Shown: positions 46,801-64,000, counted from the stretch's first letter. The stretch: 64,000 bases of DNA from Candidatus Omnitrophota bacterium (GCA_041649175.1 JBAZNR010000001.1:655497-719496), one strand, 5' to 3'. Made by a program: numbers and translations. The notes: generated from the letters alone by a model not told the origin.

Positions 46801-46877
<77 letters not shown>

Positions 46878-47083: not shown

Positions 47084-47776
47084 TTGATCAGGGCAGGAGT
47101 TTTAACCAAAAGAGAGAAGCTTTGTTTAAAGTATCGCTGGGAGTTCTTGAGAAGAAACAGGGAATACCAGAAAGACTACCGCTACATCACTATAAATCTT
47201 AAAGTCACAGATATTATCCGCAATCAATATCCGAAACACCTTGTTGATGAGGCCTTAAGTATCCTTTCAAAATGGGATTTATTAAATCTTATCCCTCCCG
47301 GGTTGTCATTCAATGCTCTTCTTGAAAGTGACAAAAAGCTAAAGAGTTTTCACATGGATTCCTTGTTTGTGAATGATTTTGCCATTGATATGTATGACTC
47401 TCCGGATTCCTTGAGCCCAAAGGATCTCTACATTAAAGGTTCGCTGGTGAGGATATACGTTAATATGAGATTTCCTAAAGAGAAAATACTCGACGAGTTT
47501 GAGCTGTTAGTCGATAAGTGGCAGAAGCCATTGAAAAAGATGATGAAGAAAGTTTTTCATGATAAGCCGGAAAAAAGATTGCAGATCAGTCAATATGAAA
47601 AGTACTTAAAAGTGTATGATTCTCATAGAAAAGGAATGTCCATGGCCCAATTGGCCAAGAAATTTTATCCCGGCTATATCGAATCATCAGGGAAAGACTA
47701 TGCTGAGCGAAAAGTTTTAAGAGACATTAACGGCTGTCTGCGTTTGATTCACGGAGGGTACAAACAAATAAGGTAA
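47084..47776 (+). CDS. element-encoded putative transcriptional regulator (N-terminal WEFLRRN-EY-DY motif, C-terminal HTH-like)
   Basis: 230 aa. KYRWEFLRRNREYQKDYRY N-terminal motif seen in mobile-element regulators. C-terminal GMSMAQLAKKFYPGY resembles an HTH. Confidence 0.4.
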   Translation: MIRAGVLTKREKLCLKYRWEFLRRNREYQKDYRYITINLKVTDIIRNQYPKHLVDEALSILSKWDLLNLIPPGLSFNALLESDKKLKSFHMDSLFVNDFAIDMYDSPDSLSPKDLYIKGSLVRIYVNMRFPKEKILDEFELLVDKWQKPLKKMMKKVFHDKPEKRLQISQYEKYLKVYDSHRKGMSMAQLAKKFYPGYIESSGKDYAERKVLRDINGCLRLIHGGYKQIR

Positions 47777-47869: not shown

Positions 47870-48190
47870 GTGATGATCAAGCTAACAGAAATTGAGATTG
47901 TGCCAGTAAGACCCAATAAGGGGTTGGTTGCATTCGCGTCGTTTATTCTCAATGATTCGTTTTTTATCGGCGATGTGGCCATTTACACGCGCATCGATCA
48001 GCCCGGATACAGGCTGGTTTATCCGGTGAGATATTTAGTCACCGGATTAAGAGTCCATTGTTTTAAACCGATTCATAAATCGGCGGCGGATGATATTGAA
48101 AACCAAGTCAGCCGTTACTATGAAAACTTGATTGAGAAAGCGAAGAAGACGGAAGGAACACCTCATGATCGATTATCAGAAATTGATTAA
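47870..48190 (+). CDS. SpoVG-like nucleic-acid-binding protein
   Basis: 106 aa. LTEIEIVPVRPNKGLVAFASFILNDSFFIGDVAIYTRIDQPGYRLVYP parallels the SpoVG core (ITDVRI..V...G..KA.ASI.LD..FVV.DIRVI). Confidence 0.5.
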   Translation: MMIKLTEIEIVPVRPNKGLVAFASFILNDSFFIGDVAIYTRIDQPGYRLVYPVRYLVTGLRVHCFKPIHKSAADDIENQVSRYYENLIEKAKKTEGTPHDRLSEID

Positions 48191-50540
48191 GAATGTGCCC
48201 GATGAATTAAAGAAGTTGCCCAATTGGGTCGGGTGCAAGATTGTGCCCAGCAAAGACCGGCCGGGTAAGACCGATAAAATCCCCATGAATGCCTTGACCG
48301 GCGCCCACGCTAAGTCCAACGACCCCTCCACGTGGACAGATTTTGAATCCGCATTAGATTTATCCATTCAACGTAAATACGATGCCATTGGTTTTGTGTT
48401 TCGACCACCGTATGTCGGTGTTGATTGTGATGAATGCCGCAAGGATGGAAAAATTTCTGATAAGGCGCAAGGCATTTTAAAACGGATTAACTGCTATACA
48501 GAAATTTCTCCAAGCGGCACAGGCGTTCATTCGATTTGTAAAGGAGAAATTAGCCGGGCCCTCAATCAGTCAAAGAAGGGTCTGGAAATTTATACTAACG
48601 GCCGGTTTTTTACCGTCACTGGCGATCGATTAGAAGAGTACCCAGCAGTAATAGAAGATCACACAGCATTCTTAAATCAGTTAATCGAGGAATATTCACC
48701 CGCCAAGTCAAAGACAAAAAAATCGTCAAAGAAAAGTCATCGAAATACGGAAGAAGTTTTAAAAGCGATTGCCCAAAGCAAAGACGCGGATAAGTTCAGT
48801 CAGCTTTTTAACGGAGAATGGAAAGACAATTATGGATCGCAGAGCGAAGCAGATTTGGCGCTGTGCGGCAAATTGGCGTTTTGGACGGCGCGGGATCCGG
48901 CGCTCATAGATTCCATCTTCCGGCAATCGAAATTGTTTCGAGAGAAGTGGGATACAAAACACTATGCCGATGGCCGGACCTATGGCCAAGGTGTGATTGA
49001 TGAGGCGATTAGTGGTTGTGATGAAGTTTTCACCTCAGCAAGACCAAAAATTTCTCAAGGCGAGATCATCACAAAAGAATGCGAAGAGCTCATCAAAGAT
49101 TGCTTTCGCGATCAACAAGGGAGTTTCTATGTGGTGTTACCGATTAATCAGCATTTGGAAGTTTGCCAAACCAAAAGCACAAGATTCCGCAACTGGATAG
49201 CGAAAGGTTATCGCGCCAGACACAAAACCCCGCCTAATAGCGAATCCATTAATCAGGCCATTATTCAGTTGGAAGCCAAATGCGAAGACTCACGGCAAAT
49301 CGAGCTTTTTAACCGTGTGGGTCATTACGGTGGAGCGATTTATTTCGACTTAACGACTCCGGATTGGCGGGGTGTACGCATTACGCCAAGCGGATGGGAG
49401 ATCATTTATCTGCCGCCTATTTTCCGTCGTTATAGTCATCAAAATGAACAAGTCATGCCGGTATTAGGCGGCGATCCGAAAGACATCCTCCGGTTTTGTA
49501 ATCTCAACGAGGATGACCAATGTCTTTTTATCGTGACTACGGCCACCTATTTTATTCCCAACATTCCTCATGTGATCATCAGCCAAAACGGTGAACAGGG
49601 GAGTGGAAAATCCTACAACAGCCGCGCGATCAAAAGGCTGGTTGATCCTTCCAAAGTTGAATTAATCTCTTCGCCCAAGGACCTCGAACAAGCACAAATG
49701 ACTGCGGACAAACATTGGGTGAGCGCGTTCGACAATCTTTCCAAAATTATCGAGTGGTTCAGCGATTTTCTCTGCCGAGGTGTCACCGGCGAAGGCGACA
49801 TGAAACGCAGCCTTTATACCAATGATGATGAATTTATCCGGTCCTATCGCCGCTGTTTCGTCATCAATGGCATCGGTAGTTTGATGTGGCGGCCGGATTT
49901 ACTGGATCGTTCCATCCTCTTCGATATTCCGATTTTAAAAGATGGTCGCTCCGAGGAGCAGATTAACGAGGAATGGAGAAATGCTCTGCCGGGTATTTTA
50001 GGGGGTTTCTTCACCGCTATCTCAAAAGCCATGAATCATGTGAACAGTGTCACTGGTCATGAAAAATTCCGGATGGCCGACTATGTGCGCTGGGGCATGA
50101 CGCTTGCGGATGAACTTGGATTTTCTCGTCAGGAATTCTTAAATAATTATAAGGAATCGGTTGACCATAAATGGGAAAACACGGCTGAGGAGAGTTCGTT
50201 AGTTAAGAGGTTGATGACTTTAGTCATGACCAATAACGGCGAGTGGTCAGGATCAACAGCAGAGTTGTTGGAGAGGATCACCCCGGAGGGAATAAAGGAC
50301 AAAACCCTTCCTAGCACGGCCCGCTGGTTATCGAGCGAGTTGATGCGCATTGCCCCGGTTATGCGTAGCACAGGGATTGATATTATTCGTTTACCTAAAC
50401 GGGAGCCCGGGACAGGGCGGCGCCTTTTTGTTTTGCGTAAAATTGACAAAAAAGTCTGTGAGATGGGCTGTGAGCAGGGTGTGAGTAGCAATGATCAAAA
50501 CGAGTCAGCTCACAGCCTTTTTGATAAAAGACCGTTTTAA
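48165..50540 (+). CDS. bifunctional primase-polymerase (prim-pol) / PriCT-2 / D5-like helicase replication protein
   Basis: N-terminal prim-pol region (YVGVDCDEC). PriCT_2-like SQSEADLALCGKLAFWTARDPALIDSIFRQSKLFREKWD. Downstream Walker A NGEQGSGKSY. The track ORF starts at 48132; the ATG at 48165 is used here. Confidence 0.8.
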   Translation: MIDYQKLIKNVPDELKKLPNWVGCKIVPSKDRPGKTDKIPMNALTGAHAKSNDPSTWTDFESALDLSIQRKYDAIGFVFRPPYVGVDCDECRKDGKISDKAQGILKRINCYTEISPSGTGVHSICKGEISRALNQSKKGLEIYTNGRFFTVTGDRLEEYPAVIEDHTAFLNQLIEEYSPAKSKTKKSSKKSHRNTEEVLKAIAQSKDADKFSQLFNGEWKDNYGSQSEADLALCGKLAFWTARDPALIDSIFRQSKLFREKWDTKHYADGRTYGQGVIDEAISGCDEVFTSARPKISQGEIITKECEELIKDCFRDQQGSFYVVLPINQHLEVCQTKSTRFRNWIAKGYRARHKTPPNSESINQAIIQLEAKCEDSRQIELFNRVGHYGGAIYFDLTTPDWRGVRITPSGWEIIYLPPIFRRYSHQNEQVMPVLGGDPKDILRFCNLNEDDQCLFIVTTATYFIPNIPHVIISQNGEQGSGKSYNSRAIKRLVDPSKVELISSPKDLEQAQMTADKHWVSAFDNLSKIIEWFSDFLCRGVTGEGDMKRSLYTNDDEFIRSYRRCFVINGIGSLMWRPDLLDRSILFDIPILKDGRSEEQINEEWRNALPGILGGFFTAISKAMNHVNSVTGHEKFRMADYVRWGMTLADELGFSRQEFLNNYKESVDHKWENTAEESSLVKRLMTLVMTNNGEWSGSTAELLERITPEGIKDKTLPSTARWLSSELMRIAPVMRSTGIDIIRLPKREPGTGRRLFVLRKIDKKVCEMGCEQGVSSNDQNESAHSLFDKRPF

Positions 50541-51260: not shown

Positions 51261-52451
51261 ATGGCTCAAGGTAGTATTGTAAAACGATGTAAGGTTTGCC
51301 GACGGGAAGGCAGGAATCAATTTGAGGCCTGCGCTCACGCTGAGCGGGTCTATGCCATTTCTTACCGCGTTGGCAGTAAATCGATTTTTAAAACCGTCGG
51401 TCCCAACAAAAAAGAAGCCGAAGCGGTCCTTGCCAAGACGCTTTCTGAGGTCAATAACGGAACGTTCTATCAAGCAGAGGAAATTTCGCTAAACGACTTT
51501 GTCGACAAATGGCTCGATGAATACGCCGCGCCCCGGATCAAAGCCAATACGCTTTACAAATATAAAAATGCCCTTCAAACGCACGTGCGTCCAGCTTTGG
51601 GCCATCACTATCTTTCCAAAATAAATCAGAACGATATCCGGGCGCTTATGTCGAAGCTGATTAAAATAAAATCAGCCAAGACGTGTAACAACCTTTTGAC
51701 GATGTTAAAGACGATCTTTAAATACGCCCGCCGTTGGGGCTATATTCGGATCAGTCCGACCGAGGATGTTGATAAATATCGTGTTGAACGGGAAGAAATG
51801 GATTTCTTGCGTCCGGAGGAGATAACGTTGTTACTCAAGCATTGCCGCGAACCGTTTAAAACATTTGTGTTAACCGCCGTCTTGACCGGCATGCGTAAGG
51901 CTGAGCTTTTAGGATTGCAGTGGGGTGACATCGATTGGAACAGTAGCACGATCTTTGTCAAAAGAAGTTTGAAATATCGGTATGAAAGTAAAATTAACGG
52001 CGAGAAGAGTTGGTATTTCGACACGCCTAAAACGAAATATTCTGTTCGGCCAATATCGATGTCACCGCGGCTCAAGGAAGCTTTGGAGATTCACCGTATT
52101 ACCGCACCCATCAATGAATCTGATTTAATTTTCGTAAATAGCGCAGGCAGTCCGTTAGATCCGGATAATACGATCAAAAGAGAATTTCAACCCGCACTTC
52201 GAATGGCCGGTCTACGCATCGTTCGCTTCCACGACTTACGTCACACCTACACATCCCTTCTCATCGCCCAAGGGGAGAACATCAAATTCATCCAATCCCA
52301 ACTCGGCCATGCCTCAATCCAAACCACCATGGATCGTTACGGTCATATCCTGCCGAATACCAACAAAGGAGTTGGGGAACGGTTGGATCGATTGGTGTTT
52401 GGAGAGGTTCCCCAGGCACCCATATCCCAAACATCTTCGGTCATTGAATAA
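51261..52451 (+). CDS. int: tyrosine-type site-specific integrase
   Basis: 396 aa. C-terminal catalytic residues in HDLRHTYTSLL...LGH...TMDRYGHI (R, H-x-x-R, Y). Phage-integrase N-terminal arm-binding region. Confidence 0.9.
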   Translation: MAQGSIVKRCKVCRREGRNQFEACAHAERVYAISYRVGSKSIFKTVGPNKKEAEAVLAKTLSEVNNGTFYQAEEISLNDFVDKWLDEYAAPRIKANTLYKYKNALQTHVRPALGHHYLSKINQNDIRALMSKLIKIKSAKTCNNLLTMLKTIFKYARRWGYIRISPTEDVDKYRVEREEMDFLRPEEITLLLKHCREPFKTFVLTAVLTGMRKAELLGLQWGDIDWNSSTIFVKRSLKYRYESKINGEKSWYFDTPKTKYSVRPISMSPRLKEALEIHRITAPINESDLIFVNSAGSPLDPDNTIKREFQPALRMAGLRIVRFHDLRHTYTSLLIAQGENIKFIQSQLGHASIQTTMDRYGHILPNTNKGVGERLDRLVFGEVPQAPISQTSSVIE

Positions 52452-52926: not shown

Positions 52927-53631
52927 GTGATGATAGAAAAGAGAAAATCAAAAGGTATTGTAAGTTGGCCGGAAGACGACAGGCCCAGAGAGAAGTTGCT
53001 TAAAAAGGGCGCGGGCGCTTTGAGCAATTCAGAACTTTTGGCCATTTTGTTGCGTACCGGAACAAACGGTACCAGCGCCATTGATCTTGCTCGGAATGTG
53101 TTGAAGAAATTTGGTACGTTTCGGGAGATGGCGCACACGGACACCCGAGACTGGAAAGAATTCAAAGGTTTAGGCGGCGCTAAGATTGCCCACATTCAGG
53201 CCGCGCTTGAGATCGGGAGGCGCTATCAACAGGATGTTGTGTCCACCGGGAAGCAGAAGATCGCTTCCGCCAAAGACGTTGTTGCTTTAGTCCTGCCCCA
53301 CATGCGCGACCTTAAGACCGAGGTCTTTAAGGTCGTCTATCTCGATAATAATAATCGAATCATTGATATTTCCGATGCCGCGATAGGAACGGTAGACCAT
53401 GCCTTTCCCATCATCCGCGAAATAATCCATTCTGCTTTACAAAAATTCGCCAAGTCGATTGTTTGTGTGCATAACCATCCAAGCGGTGAAACTGCGCCAA
53501 GCATGCAGGATAAGAAATTTACCAAAGATTTATGCGATGCCGCGCGCCTCATGGAAATCAAGGTGCTGGATCATGTCATTATCGCTGGTGATAAACATTT
53601 TAGTTTTGCTGATGAAGGGCTTATATGCTGA
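52927..53631 (+). CDS. radC: RadC-like JAB-domain protein
   Basis: RPREKLLKKGAGALSNSELLAILLRTG N-terminal HhH-like segment. JAMM motif HNHPSG-E. 7-nt overlap with the downstream SNF2 gene. Confidence 0.85.
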   Translation: MMIEKRKSKGIVSWPEDDRPREKLLKKGAGALSNSELLAILLRTGTNGTSAIDLARNVLKKFGTFREMAHTDTRDWKEFKGLGGAKIAHIQAALEIGRRYQQDVVSTGKQKIASAKDVVALVLPHMRDLKTEVFKVVYLDNNNRIIDISDAAIGTVDHAFPIIREIIHSALQKFAKSIVCVHNHPSGETAPSMQDKKFTKDLCDAARLMEIKVLDHVIIAGDKHFSFADEGLIC

Positions 53632-56507
53632 CAGATTATCACGCCAAATATTTTGCATATGAGCTCACTAAACGATGCGCTTCAGACAGTTTAGAGAAAT
53701 TATCCGCAACCCTTTCTAATGCCCAAGTTGATTTAAATCCCCATCAAATTGAAGCCGCGCTTTTTGCTTTTCGATCACCGCTTTCCAAAGGCGCGATTCT
53801 CGCCGATGAAGTTGGTCTTGGTAAAACAATTGAGGCAGGCATTGTTATTTCCCAGAAGTGGGCGGAGCGGCAGAGAAAAATTCTTATTATTGTTCCAGCG
53901 AATTTAAGAAAACAATGGAACGAAGAGTTGTTAGATAAATTTTTCATACCTTCGATTATTCTCGAGAAAAAATCATTTAACGAAGAAATAAAAAAAGGAA
54001 ATCTGAATCCTTTGAATCAGAAGGATTTAGTTGTTATTTGTTCTTACCATTTTGCCAGATCCAAAGACGTTTATATCAAACAAGCTGGTTTTGATTTAGT
54101 AATTATTGATGAAGCTCATCGCCTACGGAATGTTTACAAAGAGTCAAATAAGATTGCCAATGCGATTAAGAACTCATTAAAAGATTTCCCCAAAATACTT
54201 TTAACAGCTACTCCGCTTCAAAATTCACTTATTGAACTTTACGGACTAGTCAGTGTTGTTGACGAACAAGTTTTTGGTGATTTGGAAAGCTTTAAAGCTC
54301 AATACTGCCACAGTGATCCCCCAAATTATGCGGAATTAAAAGAACGGATTAAACCTGTTTGTCTCCGAACACTAAGAAGGCAGGTTTTGGAATATATCAA
54401 ATATACCAACCGCATGGCGATCACTCAGGAGTTTTATCCCCGCCAAGAAGAGCAAGACCTCTACAACTTGGTCACTGAATACCTTCAACGGGATAGGCTT
54501 TATGCACTTCCAAAAGCTCAAAGGCACTTGATGACGCTGATTTTAAGAAAACTTTTAGCATCGTCCACATATGCCATTGCTGGAACATTGCTGGGGTTAG
54601 CTCGTAAACTGGAATTTTTACTTAAAAATCAAGACAAGCCGGAAGTGGTTGAAGATGTTTTATCTCAAGATTATGAGGCGTATGAGGAAACAAAGGATGA
54701 GTGGATTGATGATGAAGAAGGCGACGGGGAGGAAAAAGATGAGCCGCCGCAAACAAAATTAACTGCGGAAGATGTTGAGAATATAAATGAGGAAATTGAT
54801 TTATTGAAGCAAATGCATGAATTGGCAAAGTCTATCGTTAAGAACTCCAAAGGAGAGGTTTTGTTGACTGCCCTTCAGAAAGGATTTGAGGAAGCTCAAA
54901 AAAAGGGCGCATTGAAGAAAGCGATTATCTTTACTGAATCCACTCGTACGCAGAGTTATATTCTTGAAATTTTAAATCAAACGGAATACGCAAACAGAAT
55001 TGTACTTTTTAATGGAAATAACAATAGTCCACAGGCTAGAGAGATTCTTAAAAAGTGGGTTGAGAAAAATAAAGACACAGATCGAATCACAGATTCTTCG
55101 ACGGCCAATATGAGAGCAGCGTTGGTTGATTTTTTCCGCAATGAAGCCGTGATTATGATTGCAACCGAAGCCGCGGCTGAGGGCATTAATCTTCAGTTTT
55201 GTTCTTTGATTGTTAATTATGATCTCCCTTGGAATCCGCAACGCATTGAACAACGTATAGGTCGGTGTCATCGTTATGGTCAAAAACATGATGTGGTGGT
55301 TGTTAATTTTTTGAATAAAAAGAATGCTGCGGATGTCAGGGTCTATGAATTGCTTGAGAAGAAGTTTCAGCTTTTTAGCGGGGTGTTTGGGGCTAGTGAT
55401 GAAATCTTGGGAGCATTGGAATCTGGGGTGGATTTTGAGCGCCGCATCGCACAAATTTATCAAAATTGCCGTACTGAGGAGCAGATTCAAATCTCATTCG
55501 ACCAGCTACAAAAAGATTTAGAAGAAAACATCTCAGAGAAAATCACCCAAACAAAACAGCGCCTTCTGGAAAGTTTTGACGAAGAAGTGGCCGAGAAATT
55601 GAAAATGAATTCTATTCAGAGTAAAGAATATTTGGGCAAGTATGAGGCTTGGTTGTGGGACTTAACGCGGTATTTTCTTGAGCCCTATGCCCGATTTGAT
55701 CAGGGGGATCACTCCTTCACTTTAGTTAAAAACCCATTTCCTACAGAAAGCATTGACCCCGGTCCTTACAGGATTGGAAAACATATTGATGATGCGCATA
55801 TTTATAGAGTAGGACACCCGTTAGCCCAAAAAGTCATTAGCCAGTTTAAGAGTAAAAATCTATCAACGGTGGAAGTGCAGTTTGACTACGAGAAATCCGG
55901 AAAGAAAATTTCAATATTGGAAGGCTTGGTTAACCGGACGGGGTGGCTTTCCGTCTATAACTTCACTATTCAGTCTTTTGAAGAAGAAGATCATGTTGTT
56001 TTATGCGGTTTAACTGAGGATGGTCAAGAGCTTAACGCGGATCAATGCCGAAGGCTTTTTTCACTTCCCGGAAGCGTTATGAATGAGACGGTGCTGGCAG
56101 AAAATACAAAAATTAGAATCAAGGAGATCATTGGCAAACGGCAGGCCATGATTTTAGATGCCAATATGCAGCGTAATTCCGGCTTCTTCGATAAAGAAAT
56201 CGATAAGTTAGACAAGTGGGCTGAAGACAAGCGCAATTCGCTGAAATTATCTTTAAAAGACTTAGACGATGAGATTAAAGAACTCAAAAAGACGGCAAAA
56301 CAGGCCCAGAGCCTGCCTGATAAATTAGCCGCACAGAAAAAGGTTAAGGCGCTGGAGAAGAAGCGTGACGAAGCTTGGCGAGAATACGATGTCACTGGCC
56401 GCAAAGTTGAAGAGGACAAAGATAATCTTATTGAATCAATTGAAAAAAAGCTTACTGCCAAAGAAACGTTGGCAGAAGTTTTTACCATACGCTGGAAAGT
56501 TGTTTGA
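53625..56507 (+). CDS. SNF2-family helicase with uncharacterised about 400-aa coiled-coil C-terminal extension
   Basis: Motif I ILADEVGLGKTIEAG. Motif II VIIDEAHRLRN. Motif III LLLTATPLQNSLIELYGL. Motif VI QRIGRCHRYGQ. C-terminal 560-960 has no recognisable domain but a K/E-rich coiled coil. Confidence 0.85.
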   Translation: MLTDYHAKYFAYELTKRCASDSLEKLSATLSNAQVDLNPHQIEAALFAFRSPLSKGAILADEVGLGKTIEAGIVISQKWAERQRKILIIVPANLRKQWNEELLDKFFIPSIILEKKSFNEEIKKGNLNPLNQKDLVVICSYHFARSKDVYIKQAGFDLVIIDEAHRLRNVYKESNKIANAIKNSLKDFPKILLTATPLQNSLIELYGLVSVVDEQVFGDLESFKAQYCHSDPPNYAELKERIKPVCLRTLRRQVLEYIKYTNRMAITQEFYPRQEEQDLYNLVTEYLQRDRLYALPKAQRHLMTLILRKLLASSTYAIAGTLLGLARKLEFLLKNQDKPEVVEDVLSQDYEAYEETKDEWIDDEEGDGEEKDEPPQTKLTAEDVENINEEIDLLKQMHELAKSIVKNSKGEVLLTALQKGFEEAQKKGALKKAIIFTESTRTQSYILEILNQTEYANRIVLFNGNNNSPQAREILKKWVEKNKDTDRITDSSTANMRAALVDFFRNEAVIMIATEAAAEGINLQFCSLIVNYDLPWNPQRIEQRIGRCHRYGQKHDVVVVNFLNKKNAADVRVYELLEKKFQLFSGVFGASDEILGALESGVDFERRIAQIYQNCRTEEQIQISFDQLQKDLEENISEKITQTKQRLLESFDEEVAEKLKMNSIQSKEYLGKYEAWLWDLTRYFLEPYARFDQGDHSFTLVKNPFPTESIDPGPYRIGKHIDDAHIYRVGHPLAQKVISQFKSKNLSTVEVQFDYEKSGKKISILEGLVNRTGWLSVYNFTIQSFEEEDHVVLCGLTEDGQELNADQCRRLFSLPGSVMNETVLAENTKIRIKEIIGKRQAMILDANMQRNSGFFDKEIDKLDKWAEDKRNSLKLSLKDLDDEIKELKKTAKQAQSLPDKLAAQKKVKALEKKRDEAWREYDVTGRKVEEDKDNLIESIEKKLTAKETLAEVFTIRWKVV

Positions 56508-56525
56508 TTTTAATTAAAGGAGACC

Positions 56526-58529
56526 ATGATGGGTGAACCAAAGAAAATGGATTTACGCTCGATGGATATGACCGAAGAGCATAAAGCAAAATTGAAGCAG
56601 ATTTTTCCGCATGTGTTTAATGAGGACAAGATTGATTTTGAACGCCTTAAGCAAACGCTAGGTGAAGATATTGACGCTGGATTGGAACGTTTCGGCTTAA
56701 CCTGGCCGGGGAAAGCCGAATGCATGAAGATCATTCAACAGCCAAGCATTGGTACCTTAAAACCCTGTAAGGAAGAATCCGTAAACTTTGACACAACTGA
56801 GAATCTTTTTATTGAGGGTGATAATCTGGAAGTTTTGAAGCTTTTGCAAAAGTCATATTATGGTAAGGTCAAAATGATCTACATCGACCCACCTTATAAC
56901 ACGGGTAGGGAATTTATTTATCCTGATAAATATTCTGAGACCTTGGAAACCTATTTGGCTTATACCGGTCAGGTTGATGAAGAAGGGAAAAAATTTTCGA
57001 CAAATACAGAGGCCGATGGGCGGTTTCATTCAAAATGGATAAATATGATGTATCCACGTCTCTTCCTTGCGAGAAATTTATTGAAAGACGATGGGGTGAT
57101 TTTTATTAGTATTGATGATAATGAAGCAAATAATTTGAGAAAAATATGCGATGAGATTTTTGGAGAAGAGAATTTTCGTGGAGAAATAATAAGGGCGACG
57201 GGTACAACAACCGGGCAAGACGGGAGAAAAATCGGGAGTTCTTATGATCTCTGTTTATGCTATTCCAAAAGTCAAGCTTATAAGCTTATAGGGTTGCCTT
57301 TGGTCGGTAAAGATTTGAATAGATTTAACAATGATGACAATAATGGTAAGGGGAAGTACGCATTATTGCAATTAAGGAAGACTGGCAATGCTGACAGAAA
57401 AGAGGATAGGGAGAAGATGTTTTATCCGATAGTAGCACCGGATGGCACCAAGGTGTTCCCTGTTGGCCCATCTGATTATTTGAGTCGCTGGAGAGTGGGG
57501 CCTAAAACTTACGACGAATTCTTAAAAAACGATCTTGTTGTATGGAAGAAATCCAGCGATGAAGAAAATGATGAAGATGATGAGCTTGATGATCAAATAG
57601 AAGATGTTGAGCAAGAAGAATCGATCGAGGCGACAGAGAACATTGATATATCTGGATATAAATCTGATTGGAGGCCTTATGTAAAATATTATCTGTCAGG
57701 AAGAACAAAACAAGTGTCTAATTTGTGGACAGATATCGACGGGAATAAAAAGGGTAGTTTAGAATTAAAAGAAATATTCAGTAAGAAGAAAGTTTTTGAT
57801 AACCCAAAGCCGACGGATTTTATCAGTAGACTAATCCGAATTAGTTGTGAAAAATCTGATATTGCGCTCGATTTCTTTGCGGGGAGTAGTACTACCGCCC
57901 ATGCGATACTTGAACTGAACAAACAAGACAACGGTAACCGTAAATTTATCCTCATTCAGCTTCCCGAATCTTGCACGGAAAAGAGTGAAGCTTTTAAAGC
58001 CGGATATAAAACTATTGCCGATATTGGTAAAGAGCGTATTCGTCGAGTTATTAAAAAAATTCAAGATGAAACCAAGGATGAATTAGATTTTCAGAATAAT
58101 AAAATGGACTTGGGTTTTAAGGTCTTTAAGCTTGATCAATCCAATTTCAAGATTTGGGACGGCGCAGTTGAGCAAACTTCGGATGGAAAAAAGATTGAGA
58201 AACAGCTAATGTTGCAAATTGAGCATATTAATCCAAAGGCTACTGAAGACGATGTTTTGTATGAATTGTTACTTAAATCCGGGTTCCCACTAACGACGAA
58301 AGTTGGATCTTTACAATTAGCTGGTAAGAAAGTTTATTCGATTGAGGGTGGTGCGTTATTGGTTTGTTTGGATAAAGCATTAACCAAGGAAGTCATAACA
58401 GAAATGGCCCGCAAAGAGCCAGCCCGCGTTATTTGCCTTGATGCTGGCTTTAGTGGGAACGATCAATTGAAAACAAATGCGGTTCAAATTATGAAGTCGC
58501 ATAAAGTGGAAGATTTTAGGACAGTTTAA
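56526..58529 (+). CDS. mod: Type III restriction-modification Mod subunit (N6-adenine DNA methyltransferase, beta class)
   Basis: Motif IV IYIDPPYNTG precedes motif I ALDFFAGSSTTAHA (permuted order typical of Type III Mod). Mod-like N-terminus LKQIFPHVFNEDKIDFERLKQ. AGGAG RBS. Confidence 0.85.
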   Translation: MMGEPKKMDLRSMDMTEEHKAKLKQIFPHVFNEDKIDFERLKQTLGEDIDAGLERFGLTWPGKAECMKIIQQPSIGTLKPCKEESVNFDTTENLFIEGDNLEVLKLLQKSYYGKVKMIYIDPPYNTGREFIYPDKYSETLETYLAYTGQVDEEGKKFSTNTEADGRFHSKWINMMYPRLFLARNLLKDDGVIFISIDDNEANNLRKICDEIFGEENFRGEIIRATGTTTGQDGRKIGSSYDLCLCYSKSQAYKLIGLPLVGKDLNRFNNDDNNGKGKYALLQLRKTGNADRKEDREKMFYPIVAPDGTKVFPVGPSDYLSRWRVGPKTYDEFLKNDLVVWKKSSDEENDEDDELDDQIEDVEQEESIEATENIDISGYKSDWRPYVKYYLSGRTKQVSNLWTDIDGNKKGSLELKEIFSKKKVFDNPKPTDFISRLIRISCEKSDIALDFFAGSSTTAHAILELNKQDNGNRKFILIQLPESCTEKSEAFKAGYKTIADIGKERIRRVIKKIQDETKDELDFQNNKMDLGFKVFKLDQSNFKIWDGAVEQTSDGKKIEKQLMLQIEHINPKATEDDVLYELLLKSGFPLTTKVGSLQLAGKKVYSIEGGALLVCLDKALTKEVITEMARKEPARVICLDAGFSGNDQLKTNAVQIMKSHKVEDFRTV

Positions 58530-58531
58530 AA

Positions 58532-61432
58532 ATGAAATTCAAATTTGATGCCAATCAGCAATATCAGTTAGACGCTGTAACCGCGGTGGTTGAGCTCTTT
58601 AAAGGGCAGCGTGAAAACCGTGGAGCTTACGAGATCAGCTTTCGCAAAGATACCCAATTTATGGGTCAATCGATGACGCAAACAACTCTTGGCTTGGGGA
58701 ACAATTTGGATATTGATGACAATATTCTGCAAGATAACCTCGTTTTAACTCAAAAAAATAACAGCATTTTTCAAGAAACCTCTGTTCATTCTCGAGGGCG
58801 TAATTTTTCTGTAGAAATGGAAACAGGAACGGGCAAGACTTACGTTTATTTAAGAACGCTTTTTGAGTTGAACAAGGTTTATGGTTTTAAGAAATTTATT
58901 ATCGTTGTGCCGTCGGTGGCGATTCGAGAGGGAGTTGTAACATCAATTAAGCAAATGGAAACTCATTTCAAGGAATTATATAACAATGTGTCATTTGACA
59001 GATTTCTTTACGATTCCAAAGATGTGGCCAAGCTTCGCGGATTTGCTACGAGCAATGAAATGCAGCTGATGATTATCAACATCGATTCATTTAACAAAAA
59101 ATCTATCAACATCATTTATGACTATCGCGACCAGATGAGCGGCTATAAGCCGATTGAATTTGTGCAGGCAACGAATCCGATTGTTGTGATGGATGAGCCG
59201 CAGAATATGGAAAGCGATAAGGCTAAGGAAGCCATTGCCTCTTTGAATCCGTTATGTACTTTGCGTTATTCAGCGACCCACAGAGATAAGTACAATTTGA
59301 TTTATCAACTCGATCCGATTAAAGCCTTTCAAATGAGATTGGTTAAAAAGATTTCGGTTAATTCAGTAACAGCGGAGAGTGACCCCACGCAGACGTACGT
59401 GAAGGTGGAGGAAATCAAGAATCAAAGCGGTACGTTTAAGGTAAAACTTTCTTATTTTGAACAGACCAAAGAAGGTGTTCAAAAGAAAAATAAACAATTC
59501 AAACAGCACGACGATCTTTTTGTTGTTTCCAAAGAATATGAGCCGTACCGCAATGGGTTTGTCATTGATGAGATTAACGCGCGGCCGGGAATGGAATTTG
59601 TGCGCTTTGCCAATGGTATTCGTTTAGGTCTTGGAGAAGAACAGGGCGGCAATCGAGATGATGTTGTAAAGAAACAAATCAAGGAGACGATTAAAACCCA
59701 TTTTGAAAAGGAATATCAAGTCAGGGATACGGGTATTAAGGTTTTGTCTTTATTCTTTTTGGATCGGGTTGAGAATTATCGTGTTCATAAAAAGGATGGA
59801 TACGAACTTGGAAAATATGCTCAATGGTTTGAAGAAATTTATACCAAGTTGGCACAAGAATATCGGACGTTGTTTAAGCAGGACGTTGTAGCCGCCGATA
59901 AAGTTCACAACGGTTATTTTGCCAAGGATAAGAAGGGTGATTACAAGAACACTTCGGGTGACACAAAGGACGACGAAGATACTTATTCGTTGATCATGCA
60001 GGATAAGGAAAAGCTTTTGGATTTATCTAATCCGCTTAAATTTATATTCTCGCATTCGGCACTTCGGGAAGGCTGGGATAACCCCAATGTGTTTCAGATC
60101 TGTAATTTAAGGGAGATGGGGACCGTTACCGAACGCAGGCAAACAATAGGACGAGGACTGCGGCTGCCGGTTTCTGCGTTAACCGGTGAAAGAGTCCGTG
60201 ATGAATATGTGAACAATTTGGTTGTTATCTGTACAGAATCGTTCAAGGACTTTGTGGAAGGCTTACAGAAAGAATTGGAGGATGATTGCGGCGTTGTCTT
60301 TGGACGGTTGCCCATTGAGGCTTTTGTTGGGATTGATTTTCAGCAGTATGGCCTCGATAAGATTGATAAGGCATCTTCTGAGGAGATTTGGCGCCATCTT
60401 AAAAAGGATAAAGTGATCGCGGATGATGGATTAATTTTGTCAACTTTTAGAGAAAAGGTAGATGCGCACATTTTTTCAGTCCCGGAGAAATACAAAGAAG
60501 TCACGAATGATATTATTCGGGCAATTGAGCGGCATCAAATGGATAAACATATTGAGGATCATAATAAAAGAGTAAAGGTGAAGGTTAATGAAGAAGTTCT
60601 TTTAGATCCTGAATTTGAGAAGTTTTGGCGGGCGATCAATACAAAAACAATTTATTCCGTAAAATACTCGACCGATGAGCTTATTGAAAAAGTTGTGCAG
60701 GCAATCTCCAAAATGCCGCGTATTGAGCCGCTGAAATTAAGATCGATATTAGTTGGGCTTGATATTGCTCAAAGCGGGATAAAAGCTGTGATGGAGAAAA
60801 CTCCGGATATTGAGTACGCCAGCAGGGGAGTTTATTTGCCAGATATTTTATCCTATGTGCAAAGTAAGGTTGAACTAACGCGCAGTACAATTTTTCAAAT
60901 ATTAAAGAAGTCCGGCCGTTTAGATGAGTTTACTATCAATCCTCAGCAATTCATGGATTGTGTTGTTAAAGAAATCCGGGATGTTCTTCATCGAATGATC
61001 ATTGAAGGGATTCAGTATGAAAAACTAGATGAAATATCTTATGAGATGTCTTTATTCCGGGTTGACGAACACAAGATGATGTTTGCGCAGGACAAAATTG
61101 TCCCTACGCGCAAATCTGTTTATGACTATATTTTATGGGAATCTGGAGTTGAAAAACGATTTGCTGAAGGGTTAGAGGGTTTAAAGAACATCAAATATTT
61201 TATTAAATTGCCCGGGTGGTTTAAGATTGAAACCCCTATTGGCACTTATAATCCAGATTGGGCCATTCTTAAGGAAAACGGAAAAATTGTTTATATGATT
61301 CGAGAGACAAAGGCGACGAAGGAACAACTGAAATTGCGTCTCCCTGAAGTCGATAAAATTGAATGCGGCCGCCAGCACTTTCTTGCAATCGGGGTGGACT
61401 ACGCTGTGGCGACGAGTGTGGAAGAATTATGA
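58532..61432 (+). CDS. res: Type III restriction enzyme Res subunit (helicase-nuclease)
   Basis: Motif I METGTGKTYV. Motif II variant VVMDEPQN. Helicase C region. C-terminal PD-(D/E)xK candidate NPDWAIL...IVYMIRETKAT. Starts 2 nt after the mod stop. Confidence 0.8.
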   Translation: MKFKFDANQQYQLDAVTAVVELFKGQRENRGAYEISFRKDTQFMGQSMTQTTLGLGNNLDIDDNILQDNLVLTQKNNSIFQETSVHSRGRNFSVEMETGTGKTYVYLRTLFELNKVYGFKKFIIVVPSVAIREGVVTSIKQMETHFKELYNNVSFDRFLYDSKDVAKLRGFATSNEMQLMIINIDSFNKKSINIIYDYRDQMSGYKPIEFVQATNPIVVMDEPQNMESDKAKEAIASLNPLCTLRYSATHRDKYNLIYQLDPIKAFQMRLVKKISVNSVTAESDPTQTYVKVEEIKNQSGTFKVKLSYFEQTKEGVQKKNKQFKQHDDLFVVSKEYEPYRNGFVIDEINARPGMEFVRFANGIRLGLGEEQGGNRDDVVKKQIKETIKTHFEKEYQVRDTGIKVLSLFFLDRVENYRVHKKDGYELGKYAQWFEEIYTKLAQEYRTLFKQDVVAADKVHNGYFAKDKKGDYKNTSGDTKDDEDTYSLIMQDKEKLLDLSNPLKFIFSHSALREGWDNPNVFQICNLREMGTVTERRQTIGRGLRLPVSALTGERVRDEYVNNLVVICTESFKDFVEGLQKELEDDCGVVFGRLPIEAFVGIDFQQYGLDKIDKASSEEIWRHLKKDKVIADDGLILSTFREKVDAHIFSVPEKYKEVTNDIIRAIERHQMDKHIEDHNKRVKVKVNEEVLLDPEFEKFWRAINTKTIYSVKYSTDELIEKVVQAISKMPRIEPLKLRSILVGLDIAQSGIKAVMEKTPDIEYASRGVYLPDILSYVQSKVELTRSTIFQILKKSGRLDEFTINPQQFMDCVVKEIRDVLHRMIIEGIQYEKLDEISYEMSLFRVDEHKMMFAQDKIVPTRKSVYDYILWESGVEKRFAEGLEGLKNIKYFIKLPGWFKIETPIGTYNPDWAILKENGKIVYMIRETKATKEQLKLRLPEVDKIECGRQHFLAIGVDYAVATSVEEL

Positions 61433-61491
61433 TAAGAATGTCGGGACGATAAGACCGTTAATCCTATTTTAAAAGCGAGTTAATAAATATC

Positions 61492-62169
61492 ATGAGCGAT
61501 AAATATAAGGAATTATTTGATTTATCTTTGAGAATTTTGGAGGAAGAACAGCAACGAACGAATAGGCTTGATGAAAAAGCTTCCAAATATTTTAGCGTCC
61601 TATCTTTTTTGATTGGCATTTACGGTGTTTTTTGTTCACGGATTATTAGCGATTGCATTCCATTCAAAGGTTGGATGGATATCAGTTTAATAAGTTTGGG
61701 GTTTCTTAATCTTGCAGGATTAATTGTCTCTTGGTTCTTATGTTTTGCTGTCTTCAGACAACACGTTATTGTTAAGATTCCCTTGAACGATGAAATGATC
61801 AAGTTCTTTAATGACAATGAAGTGGTTGATATTCACTACACATTGTCAAAGGCCAATAAAGATGCGCTTGTGGAGAATCGGCTTATTACCGACAAGAAAT
61901 CTTATCTATTAGTGTGGACGTATAAAATACTTTCATGGGTATTTGTTTTAATGGTCGTTATGATGTTTGTTTTTGGGCTTAAAATATGGGCTACAAAAAA
62001 TCACTATAAGAGTGGAGGTGTTGTAATGACTGAGGGAAATAAACCTAAAGAGGAACCCAAGGAAGATCTTAAGCCGCCGATGTATGACCGTATTACAGAA
62101 GGTTATGATCCATCGAAGACAAGAAAGATCGAAAAAGGGGTTGTCGAAAAAGATAAGGAAAAGAAGTAG
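61492..62169 (+). CDS. membrane protein, unknown function (coiled-coil N-terminus, 3 TM, K/E-rich tail)
   Basis: 225 aa. Hydrophobic segments SVLSFLIGIYGVFC, ISLISLGFLNLAGLIVSWFLCFAVF and LLVWTYKILSWVFVLMVVMMFVFGL. Confidence 0.5.
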   Translation: MSDKYKELFDLSLRILEEEQQRTNRLDEKASKYFSVLSFLIGIYGVFCSRIISDCIPFKGWMDISLISLGFLNLAGLIVSWFLCFAVFRQHVIVKIPLNDEMIKFFNDNEVVDIHYTLSKANKDALVENRLITDKKSYLLVWTYKILSWVFVLMVVMMFVFGLKIWATKNHYKSGGVVMTEGNKPKEEPKEDLKPPMYDRITEGYDPSKTRKIEKGVVEKDKEKK

Positions 62170-62192
62170 AGGGCTATTCTCTCCAGAGAAAT

Positions 62193-62363
62193 ATGCCGGA
62201 TGACTTATTCGATGAGTTCATGGAATATGATTTCACGATGGGTGCGGACGTCGTGAAATGCCCGCATTGCGGGGCCGATGTGCTGTGCAGTTTGTTTTTC
62301 GATAACGAAGTCGAATGCCCGGAGTGTGGGAAGAAGTTTCGAAAGGAGGGGAAAGATTCATGA
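62193..62363 (+). CDS. 56-aa zinc-ribbon protein (CPHC-x17-CPEC)
   Basis: MPDDLFDEFMEYDFTMGADVVKCPHCGADVLCSLFFDNEVECPECGKKFRKEGKDS. Below the ORF-track cutoff. Its stop overlaps the next gene's ATG (ATGA). Confidence 0.45.
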   Translation: MPDDLFDEFMEYDFTMGADVVKCPHCGADVLCSLFFDNEVECPECGKKFRKEGKDS

Positions 62364-62845
62364 AAGATCTACTCGACAAGCTATCAACCTATAACCTGTT
62401 TAACTACCTTTTTCCCGGTGTTGTTTTTGTTGTTCTGGGCGAAGCGATAACTGATTACTCTTTTGCTCAGCAGGATGTTGTTTTAGGGTTCTTTTTGTAC
62501 TATTTCATTGGACTTGTGGTCAGCAGGGTTGGATCTCTTGTTGTCGAGCCACTGCTGAAATGGATATCATTTCTTAAATTTGTGGATTATAAAGATTATG
62601 TCGCCGCCACTAAGAAAGATGAAAGAGTCGAGCTTTTATCAGAAGTGAATAATACGTATCGTACATTATGTGCATGTTTTGGTTTGCTTGCTCTGCTTAA
62701 AGTGGTCGAAGTTTTGGGAAGGAAGTTTTCAATCCCTCAAGGATGGGAGCTTTTTATCCTCGTGTTTGCTTTGCTGGTTATTTTCTTGTTTTCGTACAAG
62801 AAGCAATCCGCCTATGTTAAGAAACGAGTAGAGGCTAACAAATAG
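62360..62845 (+). CDS. 4-TM membrane protein, unknown function
   Basis: 161 aa. The track ORF starts at 62315; the internal ATG at 62360 gives translational coupling to the zinc-ribbon ORF. Four hydrophobic helices. Confidence 0.5.
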   Translation: MKDLLDKLSTYNLFNYLFPGVVFVVLGEAITDYSFAQQDVVLGFFLYYFIGLVVSRVGSLVVEPLLKWISFLKFVDYKDYVAATKKDERVELLSEVNNTYRTLCACFGLLALLKVVEVLGRKFSIPQGWELFILVFALLVIFLFSYKKQSAYVKKRVEANK

Positions 62846-62865
62846 GATCAAATAGCGAGGTTATT

Positions 62866-63948
62866 ATGGCAAATAAAGCGAAATTCACTTTTTTCAATGT
62901 CGGTCAGGGCGATGCAACCTTGTTGGAGTTGCCATCGGGACAATATATGCTCATTGACAACAAGGGAGGAGGAAAAGTTGATGTACGAAAGTATTTAAAG
63001 ACTATTCTCCCCAAAAAGGACGATAAATATTTTTTGAATTATTTTATGCTAACGCATGCCCATGTGGATCATGTGGGGTCTGTTAATGAATTGTTTGATG
63101 ATTTTGAAATAGGGGAAATTTGGTATACAGGGTTTGAATTTAAGAAGAAGGAAGAAAAAGATTTGCCCGAGCAGTATAAGCAGTTTTTAAAGAAAATTAA
63201 GGAGCGCGAGAAAAAGTATTCGGATAAGGATATCGCCGTAGAGAATGATTTGATTAATTTGCAGATAGGTGATGTCAAATTTGAATTCATGGCGCCTCCA
63301 ACGCGTGAGGTATGGGATAAGCTTAAAGAGTCAAAAGAAATTAAATCTTATTTGCAGAGGTTAGAAGAAAGTGTTGAAGAGAGTGCCAAAAAATCACTAT
63401 CTGATCTTATTCATGTGGGTTCAATTATTTGTCGAATAACCTACATGAATTCAAGTGTTTTGATTACGGGGGACGGGGAGTTATTGACGTGGAAGTATTG
63501 GATTATGCCGAAGTTTTCGCGCAGTTGCTTTTCGAAATTGCTCCATGCGTCCCATCATGGTTCAAAAGGATTTTTTATCTCTCAGTTTGATTGTGCTAAA
63601 GATGAAACTTTTGATGAAAATACCGATGGGTGCTATACCGATGGCTTGCTGTCAATCTCCCCATCAATTGTTGTTGTGACAAATAAGACTAAACCCGGAG
63701 ATAAAGATCACGAGAGCCCGCCCAATGAATATGCATTGAAACTTTATGCATCGTTCAAGAATGTGAACAGAACTCTTAAGTTTACGAGTGACGGTTCTAT
63801 CCAATATGTTATTCCGGATGAGCAGATTAGTGCATTAAATATTGATTCTGATAAAAGGTTTGCGGTGGACTCTTCGTCGGAAAAAGCTTCTACAACTTTT
63901 GAGAAACCGAGAAGCCCGGCCGTACTATTCCCCAATCGATTCGGATAG
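62866..63948 (+). CDS. standalone ComEC-type metallo-beta-lactamase-fold hydrolase (putative nuclease) with about 150-aa C-terminal extension
   Basis: FTFFNVGQGDATLLELP (ComEC-MBL signature) and HAHVDHVGS (HxHxDH). Further His/Asp motifs (LHASHHGSK). No TM segments. Confidence 0.7.
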   Translation: MANKAKFTFFNVGQGDATLLELPSGQYMLIDNKGGGKVDVRKYLKTILPKKDDKYFLNYFMLTHAHVDHVGSVNELFDDFEIGEIWYTGFEFKKKEEKDLPEQYKQFLKKIKEREKKYSDKDIAVENDLINLQIGDVKFEFMAPPTREVWDKLKESKEIKSYLQRLEESVEESAKKSLSDLIHVGSIICRITYMNSSVLITGDGELLTWKYWIMPKFSRSCFSKLLHASHHGSKGFFISQFDCAKDETFDENTDGCYTDGLLSISPSIVVVTNKTKPGDKDHESPPNEYALKLYASFKNVNRTLKFTSDGSIQYVIPDEQISALNIDSDKRFAVDSSSEKASTTFEKPRSPAVLFPNRFG

Positions 63949-63952
63949 AAAT

Positions 63953-64000
63953 ATGTTTAGCAAAGAGGAACAAGATGCGATTGAAGAATTTTTTAAAGGG
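63953..64000 (+). CDS. hypothetical protein, 3'-truncated at window end
   Basis: ATG at 63953 five nt after the MBL gene stop. MFSKEEQDAIEEFFKG... runs off the window. Confidence 0.3.
   Translation, partial: MFSKEEQDAIEEFFKG

Follow-up and report, generated by a model that had tools for sequence, protein, structure and literature searches.

We analyzed a 64,000-nt stretch of a Candidatus Omnitrophota bacterium genome (GCA_041649175.1, JBAZNR010000001.1:655497-719496), referred to in its entirety as the window, at the end of which five open reading frames (ORFs), g1 to g5, lie downstream of the res gene of a type III restriction-modification (R-M) system. Three of them, g3, g4 and g5, together with a JAB peptidase gene expected just past the end of the window, probably form a divergent anti-phage system of the 6A-MBL kind to which a membrane protein is attached. 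To judge from homology and gene order, the locus resembles a split form of the 6A-MBL family that is linked to a membrane protein and arranged like CBASS, a kind of anti-phage system that signals through cyclic oligonucleotides. The sequence-only reading of this DNA had recognized no named defense system here, but profile searches assign g3 over its full length to the PADLOC family PDC-M48A (PDLC04670, 9.5e-65, residues 1-160 against positions 1-160 of 164), and g4 and g5 match the NCBIfam 6A-MBL models, below their cut-offs.

The five ORFs are co-directional and tightly packed on the + strand. The first, g1 (61492-62169), begins 59 nt downstream of the res stop codon (61432) and encodes a 225-aa membrane protein with three hydrophobic segments (residues 34-52, 62-80 and 145-163) and a Lys/Glu-rich tail. 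It is followed by g2 (62193-62363), which encodes a 56-aa Cys4 zinc-ribbon (ZnR) peptide with the pattern CPHC...CPEC and matches Pfam Zn_ribbon_3 (1.6e-6) and other zinc-ribbon models. The product of g3 (62360-62845) is a 161-aa protein with four hydrophobic segments, hence four predicted transmembrane (TM) segments; its ATG is preceded by GGAGG and overlaps the g2 stop in an ATGA. A longer g3 start exists at 62315, but homologues of 161-166 aa support the 161-aa form. g4 (62866-63948) encodes a 360-aa ComEC-like metallo-hydrolase of the metallo-beta-lactamase (MBL) fold, and 4 nt beyond its stop begins g5 (63953-64000), a Cap2-like E2-E1 fusion of which the first 16 codons are in the window before it runs off the end. 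The sequence-only reading had listed the same co-directional series behind res, including the 3-TM protein, the Cys4 peptide, the 4-TM protein coupled by an ATGA overlap and the truncated fifth ORF, and each was found at its coordinates on the + strand. Because each of g1 to g4 has conserved homologues, they are real genes and not chance ORFs. No terminator-like sites were detected in 61000-64000, and the promoter and terminator scan did not rise above the shuffled expectation.

The g4 product is likely a ComEC-like phosphodiesterase, for which nuclease is the likeliest activity. MBL is the sole domain matched (Pfam Lactamase_B, 7.6e-6, above the gathering score). An AlphaFold2 (AF2) model (pLDDT 85.5, pTM 0.86) has as its best Foldseek match in the PDB the ComEC beta-lactamase-like domain 9ic4 (E 2e-15), which agrees with the "ComEC-type" label previously given to this protein, as does a weak match to TIGR00361 ComEC_Rec2 (22.6 bits vs a cut-off of 190). 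The GQGD, HAHVDH and HHGS motifs of g4, for which the ComEC domain has GQGD, HxHxDH and HHGS, are invariant across the g4 family (alignment A2), as are D16, H64, H66, D68, H69, H183, D203, H227, H230 and H231; the HxHxDH metal-binding motif (H64-A-H-V-D-H69) is encoded at 63055-63072 (+). With its metal ligands conserved, g4 looks catalytically intact. Unlike ComEC/Rec2, however, it is free-standing and soluble, lacks the DUF4131 and Competence (PF03772) domains, carries a conjugation-type tail and sits in a defense context.

Among defense-related profiles, g4 matches NCBIfam 6A-MBL_enzyme (NF058524, the MBL-fold protein of the anti-phage 6A-MBL system) with 3.4e-16 and 59.3 bits, and PADLOC models for LmuA (1.7e-12), RTasMBL (1.1e-11) and PDC-M48B (3.8e-8). 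It is not a PDC-M48B protein: its score on that model is 30.9 bits with the best stretch confined to residues 1-76, whereas full-length matches of 270-627 bits are the rule for genuine B proteins. The MBLs of Avs1a, MBL-type LmuA, RTasMBL and HamM resemble g4 (1e-8 to 1e-12) in being stand-alone MBLs of multi-gene systems, but their partners are a STAND NTPase, the SMC-like LmuB, a reverse transcriptase and the Hachiman helicase, respectively, and none is known to be controlled by an E2-E1 enzyme. Close relatives of g4 are few. Twenty-one proteins are 59-91% identical and the next are at most 31% identical, and when 1.84 billion representatives were searched with a profile, the g4 clade formed one 50%-identity cluster.

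The C-terminus of g4 connects it to its neighbor g5. Residues 337-360 (63874-63945, +; ...EKPRSPAVLFPNRFG) are disordered in the AF2 model (pLDDT <50), end in ...FPNRFG, and are predicted to be a ubiquitin-like conjugation handle. G360 is kept in at least 90% of the g4 family (A2), where it either ends the protein or has 1-5 residues behind it (for example RRHVC, KKYVR or Q), and many further relatives terminate in R[FY][GA] or RLD[DN]xxxA. A flexible tail with a conserved (near-)terminal Gly, as E1 adenylation would call for, is by sequence what characterizes a ubiquitin-like C-terminus whose extension can be removed. The C-terminal extension had been described as unique to this protein; it is instead a tail of the Cap2-substrate type, the Gly of which is conserved in the family. 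Canonical 6A-MBL enzymes have comparable ends, namely APRAG plus 0-4 residues: ...APRAG in Nostoc, ...APRAGVINQ in E. coli and ...APRAGRWR in Gluconobacter. The tail of the E. cloacae CBASS cyclase CdnD, ...KTGRFA, has been seen adenylated in the E1 site of Cap2 (10.1101/2022.03.31.486616), and the g4 homolog of one related locus, L002, ends in ...KPGRFA (loci are cited by L numbers throughout). A Gly in the last five residues was rejected as a marker of Cap2-linked MBLs, in that type b PDC-M48B proteins also end in ...YIGTLNL; the only informative tail motifs are R[FY][GA] and APRAG.

The g5 product could be followed beyond the window on L001, a 3.2-kb Logan contig that is 100% identical to window positions 62254-64000 and extends g5 to at least 509 aa. 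This fragment has an E2-type motif, FPHVRMDDGKIC, with Cys86, a ThiF-type Rossmann motif (GCGAIG) at residue 332, a Pfam ThiF match (3.9e-16), and a match of 2.6e-39 and 135 bits to NCBIfam 6A-MBL_cap2_3 (NF058523); its best PDB sequence match is Cap2 (7to3, 3.6e-11). The E2 Cys, the E1 Rossmann motif and the Asp/Arg residues are invariant among the Cap2-type proteins compared. An MBL-fold gene and a ThiF-type E2-E1 gene are therefore direct neighbors in g4-g5. The ortholog of g5 in L090 matches the PADLOC CBASS E1-E2 model with 1.6e-44, which is at least as good a fit as that to 6A-MBL cap2_3.

Orthologous loci indicate what follows g5. In L086 and L087 the Cap2 protein is 568 aa long, shares 82% identity with the fragment and is encoded ahead of a 161-162-aa Prok-JAB gene. 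In all g4-orthologous loci with readable flanks (L002, L003-5, L086, L087/88, L090, L097 and L098), a Cap2-type protein of 568-586 aa is followed by a separate Prok-JAB protein of 156-177 aa, and the L090 JAB has an intact JAMM motif. Because the orthologous E2-E1 proteins of L086, L087 and L090 stop at 568 aa with a separate JAB gene next, the E2-E1 and JAB modules most likely occupy separate genes in this genome as well; and since the orthologous loci carry Cap2 and then JAB, the window system very probably reads g3-g4-Cap2-JAB. A metagenome scan seeded with the narrow Cap2 alignment A4 (the 7-sequence alignment A3 was too divergent) returned 6 loci, from which we conclude that window-type systems are rare and that the statistics are small. 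The Cap2 gene itself can be exchanged. While the L002 MBL is 73% identical to g4, the L002 Cap2 is 19% identical to that of L090 (L002:4171-5931 compared with L090:3030-4736), which suggests that the E2-E1 gene of L002 was swapped independently of its MBL substrate; the tail of the MBL shifts along with the Cap2 swap, from ...NRFG to ...GRFA.

6A-MBL was reportedly presented as a defense system by van den Berg et al. in 2024. Its architecture, operon row 6a in Iyer, Burroughs and Aravind (2006, PMC1779556), consists of two genes, one for an E2-E1-JAB triple-module protein and one for a specialised MBL. Later papers list 6A-MBL among defense systems, and "MBL pathways" have been classed alongside type II CBASS and Pycsar as systems whose enzyme is attached to unknown targets by an Atg7-like E2-E1 (PMC11601596); no mechanism for 6A-MBL was found in the literature examined. 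The present locus is like 6A-MBL in that a specialised MBL gene lies directly upstream of a Cap2-related E2-E1 gene with, in the orthologous loci, an associated JAB, a conserved Gly closes the MBL or is trailed by a few residues, and the genes are island- or plasmid-borne. It differs in that the single 665-800-aa triple-module protein of 6A-MBL is represented in the orthologs of the locus by an E2-E1 protein of 568 aa and a JAB protein of about 162 aa, in that the tail is APRAG in 6A-MBL and NR[FY]G, like that of CBASS cyclases, in the g4 family, and in that a PDC-M48A 4-TM gene stands ahead of the MBL gene. Type II CBASS, too, has a separate Cap2-like E2-E1 gene, a Cap3-like JAB (seen here in the orthologous loci), a substrate enzyme with a disordered tail ending ...R-F-G/A (...GRFA in CdnD), and frequent membrane or phospholipase partner genes. 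But the cyclase position, filled there by a CD-NTase, is filled here by an MBL hydrolase: profile searches found no CD-NTase or SMODS match among g1 to g5, nor any recognizable cyclic-nucleotide sensor.

The membrane protein g3 belongs to a large and strongly conserved family. It has 1591 homologues. Identity is 47-86% across many bacterial phyla and some archaea, and stays at about 50-60% when Omnitrophota, Bacteroidota, Proteobacteria, Patescibacteria, Cyanobacteria and archaea are compared; a PHROG family, phrog_11864, matches it with 1e-36. Mean column identity among 30 sequences from many phyla is 73%, and the polar residues K7, N15, D39, R56, E63, D87, N97, N98, R101, K148 and Q149 are invariant in alignment A1, a constraint that, as far as an alignment can tell, is far above that expected of a simple pore-former. 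The AF2 model (pLDDT 77.6) has five helices and no significant match in PDB or BFVD. An N-terminal likeness to the type VI-B accessory protein Csx27 (4.9e-4 in PADLOC, 0.006 in NCBIfam) is far below the cut-offs and was kept as a lead only.

To map the neighbors of g3, ORFs were called in 80 genome loci seeded with the g3 family and the neighboring proteins were clustered. An MBL-cluster protein was encoded within 3 genes of the g3 homolog on the same strand, mostly adjacent to it, in 75 of 81 loci, and an E2-E1-JAB protein was present in 13. In IMG/VR, an MBL-cluster ORF adjoined the g3 homolog in all 11 loci that had sequence downstream of it. Where no E2-E1 gene is present, the MBLs are genuine PDC-M48B proteins with PYPEEQEE or YIGTLNL termini. 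PDC-M48 is a PADLOC candidate system (A, the 4-TM protein; B, the MBL) and resembles the locus in placing a full-length A protein next to an MBL-fold protein, but its B proteins have the termini just named and no E2-E1 or JAB partner; beside g3 itself there is no PDC-M48B gene, its adjacent MBL being g4. Both NCBIfam 6A-MBL cut-offs are exceeded in three other loci (L011, L027 and L072), and in these a g3 homolog lies directly downstream of the 6A-MBL genes (L011, L027) or behind a PDC-M48B gene (L072). The same 4-TM family is thus found beside stand-alone MBLs and beside MBLs controlled by Cap2 and Cap3, in parallel with the distinction between type I and type II CBASS. Lipase_3 genes precede the PDC-M48B-PDC-M48A pair in three loci (L002:528-3046, L006:5972-8483 and L089:6368-8890), one of which belongs to the complete genome of the omnitrophote Candidatus Velamenicoccus archaeovorus LiM.

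A putative membrane-acting partner is a recurring theme of 6A-MBL-type operons, and it is not always of the g3 type. In L003-5 the g3 position is taken by another 4-TM protein (247 aa in L003), which profile comparison did not relate to g3 (E 0.14) and which we term analogous. In L098 a 232-aa 4-TM protein from a family different from g3 lies upstream of a window-type MBL; it has WGGxPTT and YGFxRNLLG motifs in common with a 262-aa 4-TM protein that follows a canonical 6A-MBL pair on a Nostoc linckia plasmid (L114, 2867-8263). On Gluconobacter oxydans pGOX1 (L115, 2868-7340) the canonical pair is followed by a patatin-like phospholipase.

Such variation of the third gene, which takes in the g3 type (L011, L027, L036, L045 and others), other 4-TM families, patatin and Lipase_3, is what one would see among effectors, and it lends some weight to a different wiring of the same system, in which the MBL would be an upstream sensor or signal-processing enzyme primed by Cap2, and the membrane protein would be the killing effector, replaceable by patatin or another TM family and acting in abortive infection through membrane damage instead of an attack by a nuclease. 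The substrate of Cap2 in type II CBASS is likewise the signaling enzyme and not the effector. However, MBL-fold enzymes are hydrolases with no known signal product, no ligand-sensing domain is recognizable in the 161 residues of g3, the enterobacterial 6A-MBL operons have only two genes, and the related MBLs of Avs1, Lamassu, DRT and HamMAB count as effectors, HamMAB requiring an active MBL (PMC13069673). We consider this CBASS-like wiring possible but unlikely.

A number of observations weigh against assigning g3, g4 and g5 to one divergent 6A-MBL system. Both g4 and g5 are remote from the canonical proteins: g4 scores 59.3 bits vs the NF058524 equivalog cut-off of 220, and g5 135 bits (its full-length L090 ortholog 130 bits) vs the NF058523 cut-off of 320, where the true members L011, L027 and L072 reach 366-437 and 508-597 bits, respectively. 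The window and L001 both stop inside g5, so that its 3' end and the JAB gene are taken from orthologs. The two enterobacterial plasmid 6A-MBL operons that were inspected have no g3-type gene, from which it follows that the family can do without the TM protein. After ComEC, the structure most like g4 is the Pce phosphorylcholine esterase, and therefore the substrate of g4 need not be DNA. In L002, L086 and L089 a PDC-M48B-type MBL lies on the other side of g3, which may belong with it instead of with g4, and the literature search found no experiment on any g3-containing system.

Matches to the E2-E1-JAB protein that span at least 80% of its length occur on more than 200 enterobacterial plasmids. 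On the E. coli and E. albertii IncF plasmids L113 and L116 the two-gene 6A-MBL operon lies by a divergent gene for a WYL-domain protein, an arrangement reminiscent of CapW-type regulation, and a protein of 172 aa, for which two TM segments are predicted, is encoded beside it.

The PDC-M48B genes on the far side of g3, for which L097 is a fourth case, also bear on whether g3 and g4-g5 merely happen to be neighbors. Under such a scheme g3, with or without the zinc ribbon, would be a PDC-M48-type remnant or separate element without the MBL-B gene it once had, alongside which a self-sufficient g4-g5-JAB unit had landed in a hotspot for cargo. Breakpoints of DNA homology fall exactly at the gene borders, each unit is also found without the others, g4 matches PDC-M48B only weakly, and canonical 6A-MBL works as a two-gene architecture. 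The g3-g4 adjacency, with its spacer of about 20 nt, is nevertheless kept in all readable g4 relatives of at least 73% identity, and no PDC-M48B gene was found in the window, L087, L090 or L095. Moreover, L003-5 and L098 replace g3 with analogous 4-TM proteins and not with nothing, and several canonical 6A-MBL operons carry g3 without a second MBL gene. Mere juxtaposition is on balance doubtful, and we retain the interpretation of g3, g4, g5 and JAB as a single system.

The genes g1 and g2 appear to be outside this system. The sequence-only reading had drawn the unit as g1 to g4 and proposed a new four-gene abortive-infection module. The close co-directional spacing without a terminator-like site agrees with that boundary, and the full order g1-ZnR-g3-MBL-Cap2-JAB does recur once, in L090, beside type IV secretion system (T4SS) genes. 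Elsewhere the two genes part from the others. The g1 family is small (16 relatives; PHROG phrog_23273, 2.3e-17), and g1 occurs alone, its neighbors being genes for a serine recombinase and an AAA_13 protein in L091-93 and a DUF1016 gene in L094. In L119 (5630-9415), L120 and L121 (3144-8130), g1 and the zinc ribbon lie behind a DUF499 ATPase gene and ahead of unrelated defense-like cassettes: pairs of ThsB-type TIR and Peptidase_C14 (caspase) genes in L119 and L120, and a SMODS nucleotidyltransferase with a 205-aa protein that has a central hydrophobic stretch (2-TM by eye) in L121. Neither g3 nor an MBL gene follows the g1-ZnR pair in L119 and L121, and homologs of g1 and g2 are absent from all 80 genome loci that were seeded with g3. 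Conversely, the zinc ribbon is found directly upstream of a g3 homolog in L090, L095 and L087, in the last two with g3-MBL-Cap2 and without g1. A four-gene module would also leave out the Cap2 and JAB genes that are always behind g4. We therefore hold it to be very improbable; the core is g3-g4-g5-(JAB), which extends past the window.

Nucleotide comparisons locate the joints between these units. In blastn searches L119-121 match the window solely over 61498-62348, the matches of L086, L089, L097 and L002 begin exactly at 62360, and those of L087 and L095 begin at 62254 and 62193. Because the breakpoints of DNA homology fall at gene borders and the units recombine across loci, the region is, by these comparisons, a mosaic of independently assorting units (g1, ZnR, g3 and MBL-Cap2-JAB). 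The ATGA overlap of g2 and g3 is not decisive, because that junction is also a recombination breakpoint. g1 is best described as a facultative neighbor and g2 as a conserved connector gene, which might serve g1, g3 or neither of them; the two seem to flank a variable slot for defense cargo, and the pair may mark a hotspot of cargo exchange. Compared with its counterparts in L095 and L090, g2 shows 14 synonymous and 13-14 non-synonymous codon differences, and it is, so far as its homologues testify, a real conserved gene. Public annotation appears to miss it, because the NCBI locus tags of g1 (WC676_02795) and g3 (WC676_02800) are one annotation step apart; g1 is called there as a 124-aa protein (P0164), compared with 225 aa here.

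The resemblance of g4 to ComEC raises the question of competence. It had been remarked that the chromosomal comEC at 17265 lacks an MBL domain of its own, and this is true: a domain search of its product (17265-19781) found DUF4131 and Competence domains, to which a TPR/YfiO (BamD-like) region is joined at the C-terminus, and no MBL domain. One might thus picture g4, with the ComEC MBL domain as its nearest structure, as a housekeeping nuclease that supplies the missing domain in trans for DNA uptake. Yet all g4 relatives are island-borne or carried by mobile genetic elements and are tied to Cap2 and JAB genes, not to competence genes; the g4 clade, one small cluster at 50% identity, is not lineage-wide; and some 45 kb separate g4 from comEC, the DNA around g4 being lower in G+C. 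Nothing connects the chromosomal ComEC to g4. Complementation was rejected on genomic context, and we find it scarcely credible.

The surroundings of the locus are rich in defense and mobility genes. A tRNA-Met gene (46801-46877) lies upstream of the backbone of a mobile element, which comprises genes for a RovC-like DNA-binding protein (47084-47776), a SpoVG-like protein (47870-48190), an 802-aa primase-polymerase (prim-pol) protein with an NrS-1 HBD domain (48132-50540) and a 396-aa ORF (51261-52451) put down in an earlier note as a putative integrase. The far att site of the element is beyond the window. RadC (52927-53631), the ORF of which overlaps that of a 960-aa SNF2 helicase (53625-56507), type III mod (56526-58529) and type III res (58532-61432) form one tight block (52927-61432). 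The helicase matches the PADLOC model of the DISARM protein DrmD with 7e-213, and no other DISARM genes are present beside it; the block looks like a helicase-augmented type III R-M system. G+C content is 0.36-0.41 from 54 kb on vs 0.40-0.46 for most of the remaining window.

Related loci have similar company. In L086 a prim-pol gene of the same kind lies upstream of the MBL module, with a different R-M system between them, and the neighbors seen among the relatives include DpnII or NgoPII R-M systems, a PLD-SNF2 protein accompanied by an MmeI-like enzyme, SIR2-HerA, serine recombinases, prim-pol genes and, in L090, T4SS genes near the module. The P2-like coliphages D8, 11W, 12W and P24E6b match g3 near position 29 kb. 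In Escherichia phage D8 (L117, 3501-5089), which was inspected, a 162-aa g3-like protein is encoded directly after the replication gene gpA and faces a convergent gene for a 361-aa protein that begins like PDC-M48B-type MBLs. The site after gpA in P2-like phages is a known defense hotspot. The R-M, SIR2-HerA, recombinase and T4SS genes around the window locus or those of its relatives are in keeping with the defense profile that the sequence-only reading had seen here, and the homologues are clearly not the uniformly chromosomal housekeeping genes that would have spoken against it. A defense role is the best reading of these genes that homology and context offer.

Taken as a 6A-MBL-like system, the genes suggest a mechanism. 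By analogy with Cap2, Cap3 and the CD-NTases, the Cap2-like g5 would adenylate G360 of g4 in its E1 site, move g4 by way of thioesters on an E1 Cys, a candidate for which is Cys512 (in NTGCY) of the L090 ortholog, and then on the E2 Cys86, and ligate it to a target. Conjugation would prime or relocate g4, and the JAB peptidase would undo it and would also expose the Gly where 1-5 extra residues follow. The primed g4, a predicted metal-dependent phosphodiesterase, most likely a nuclease, with a flexible Gly-ended C-terminal tail, would then degrade nucleic acid or another phosphodiester. The 4-TM g3 would be the membrane partner of the MBL enzyme, serving as a tether, a sensor or a second effector, and for this reason we propose that the response takes place at the inner membrane. 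Conjugation, the nuclease activity, the membrane role and the anti-phage function of the system in this organism are what we infer from these comparisons, which themselves establish the genes and their order, the homologies, the conservation of catalytic residues and of the disordered Gly tail, and the constant TM-MBL adjacency.

A more speculative proposal, which we advance with little confidence, is that MBL-based defense systems may form a CBASS-like superfamily, with a "type I" consisting of a 4-TM protein and an MBL (PDC-M48) and a "type II" that adds Cap2 and Cap3 (6A-MBL and the split variant found here). The membrane partners may be interchangeable, as three unrelated 4-TM families, patatin and Lipase_3 would suggest. 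In such a superfamily the MBL might be a sensor or activator of a membrane effector, or Cap2 might attach the MBL to the membrane; an Atg7/Atg3-like Cap2 may, in that alternative, join the MBL to a lipid or to the 4-TM protein. The searchable literature contains no mention of "PDC-M48", and the papers on PDC-M systems tested other candidates. No paper was found, in a search of incomplete coverage, that connects PDC-M48 to 6A-MBL or reports on membrane partners of the latter.

The locus and its relatives link 6A-MBL with PDC-M48, which is a computational candidate. The g1-ZnR pair may mark a slot in which cassettes (MBL-Cap2, TIR-caspase and SMODS) are swapped, and it is possibly a handle in searches for such cargo. 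The wider implication is that the locus bears on how ubiquitin-like conjugation controls an enzyme other than a cyclase in bacterial immunity, and on whether the membrane is the site of action. If the MBL is attached to the membrane, a ComEC-like nuclease would be placed where phage DNA enters.

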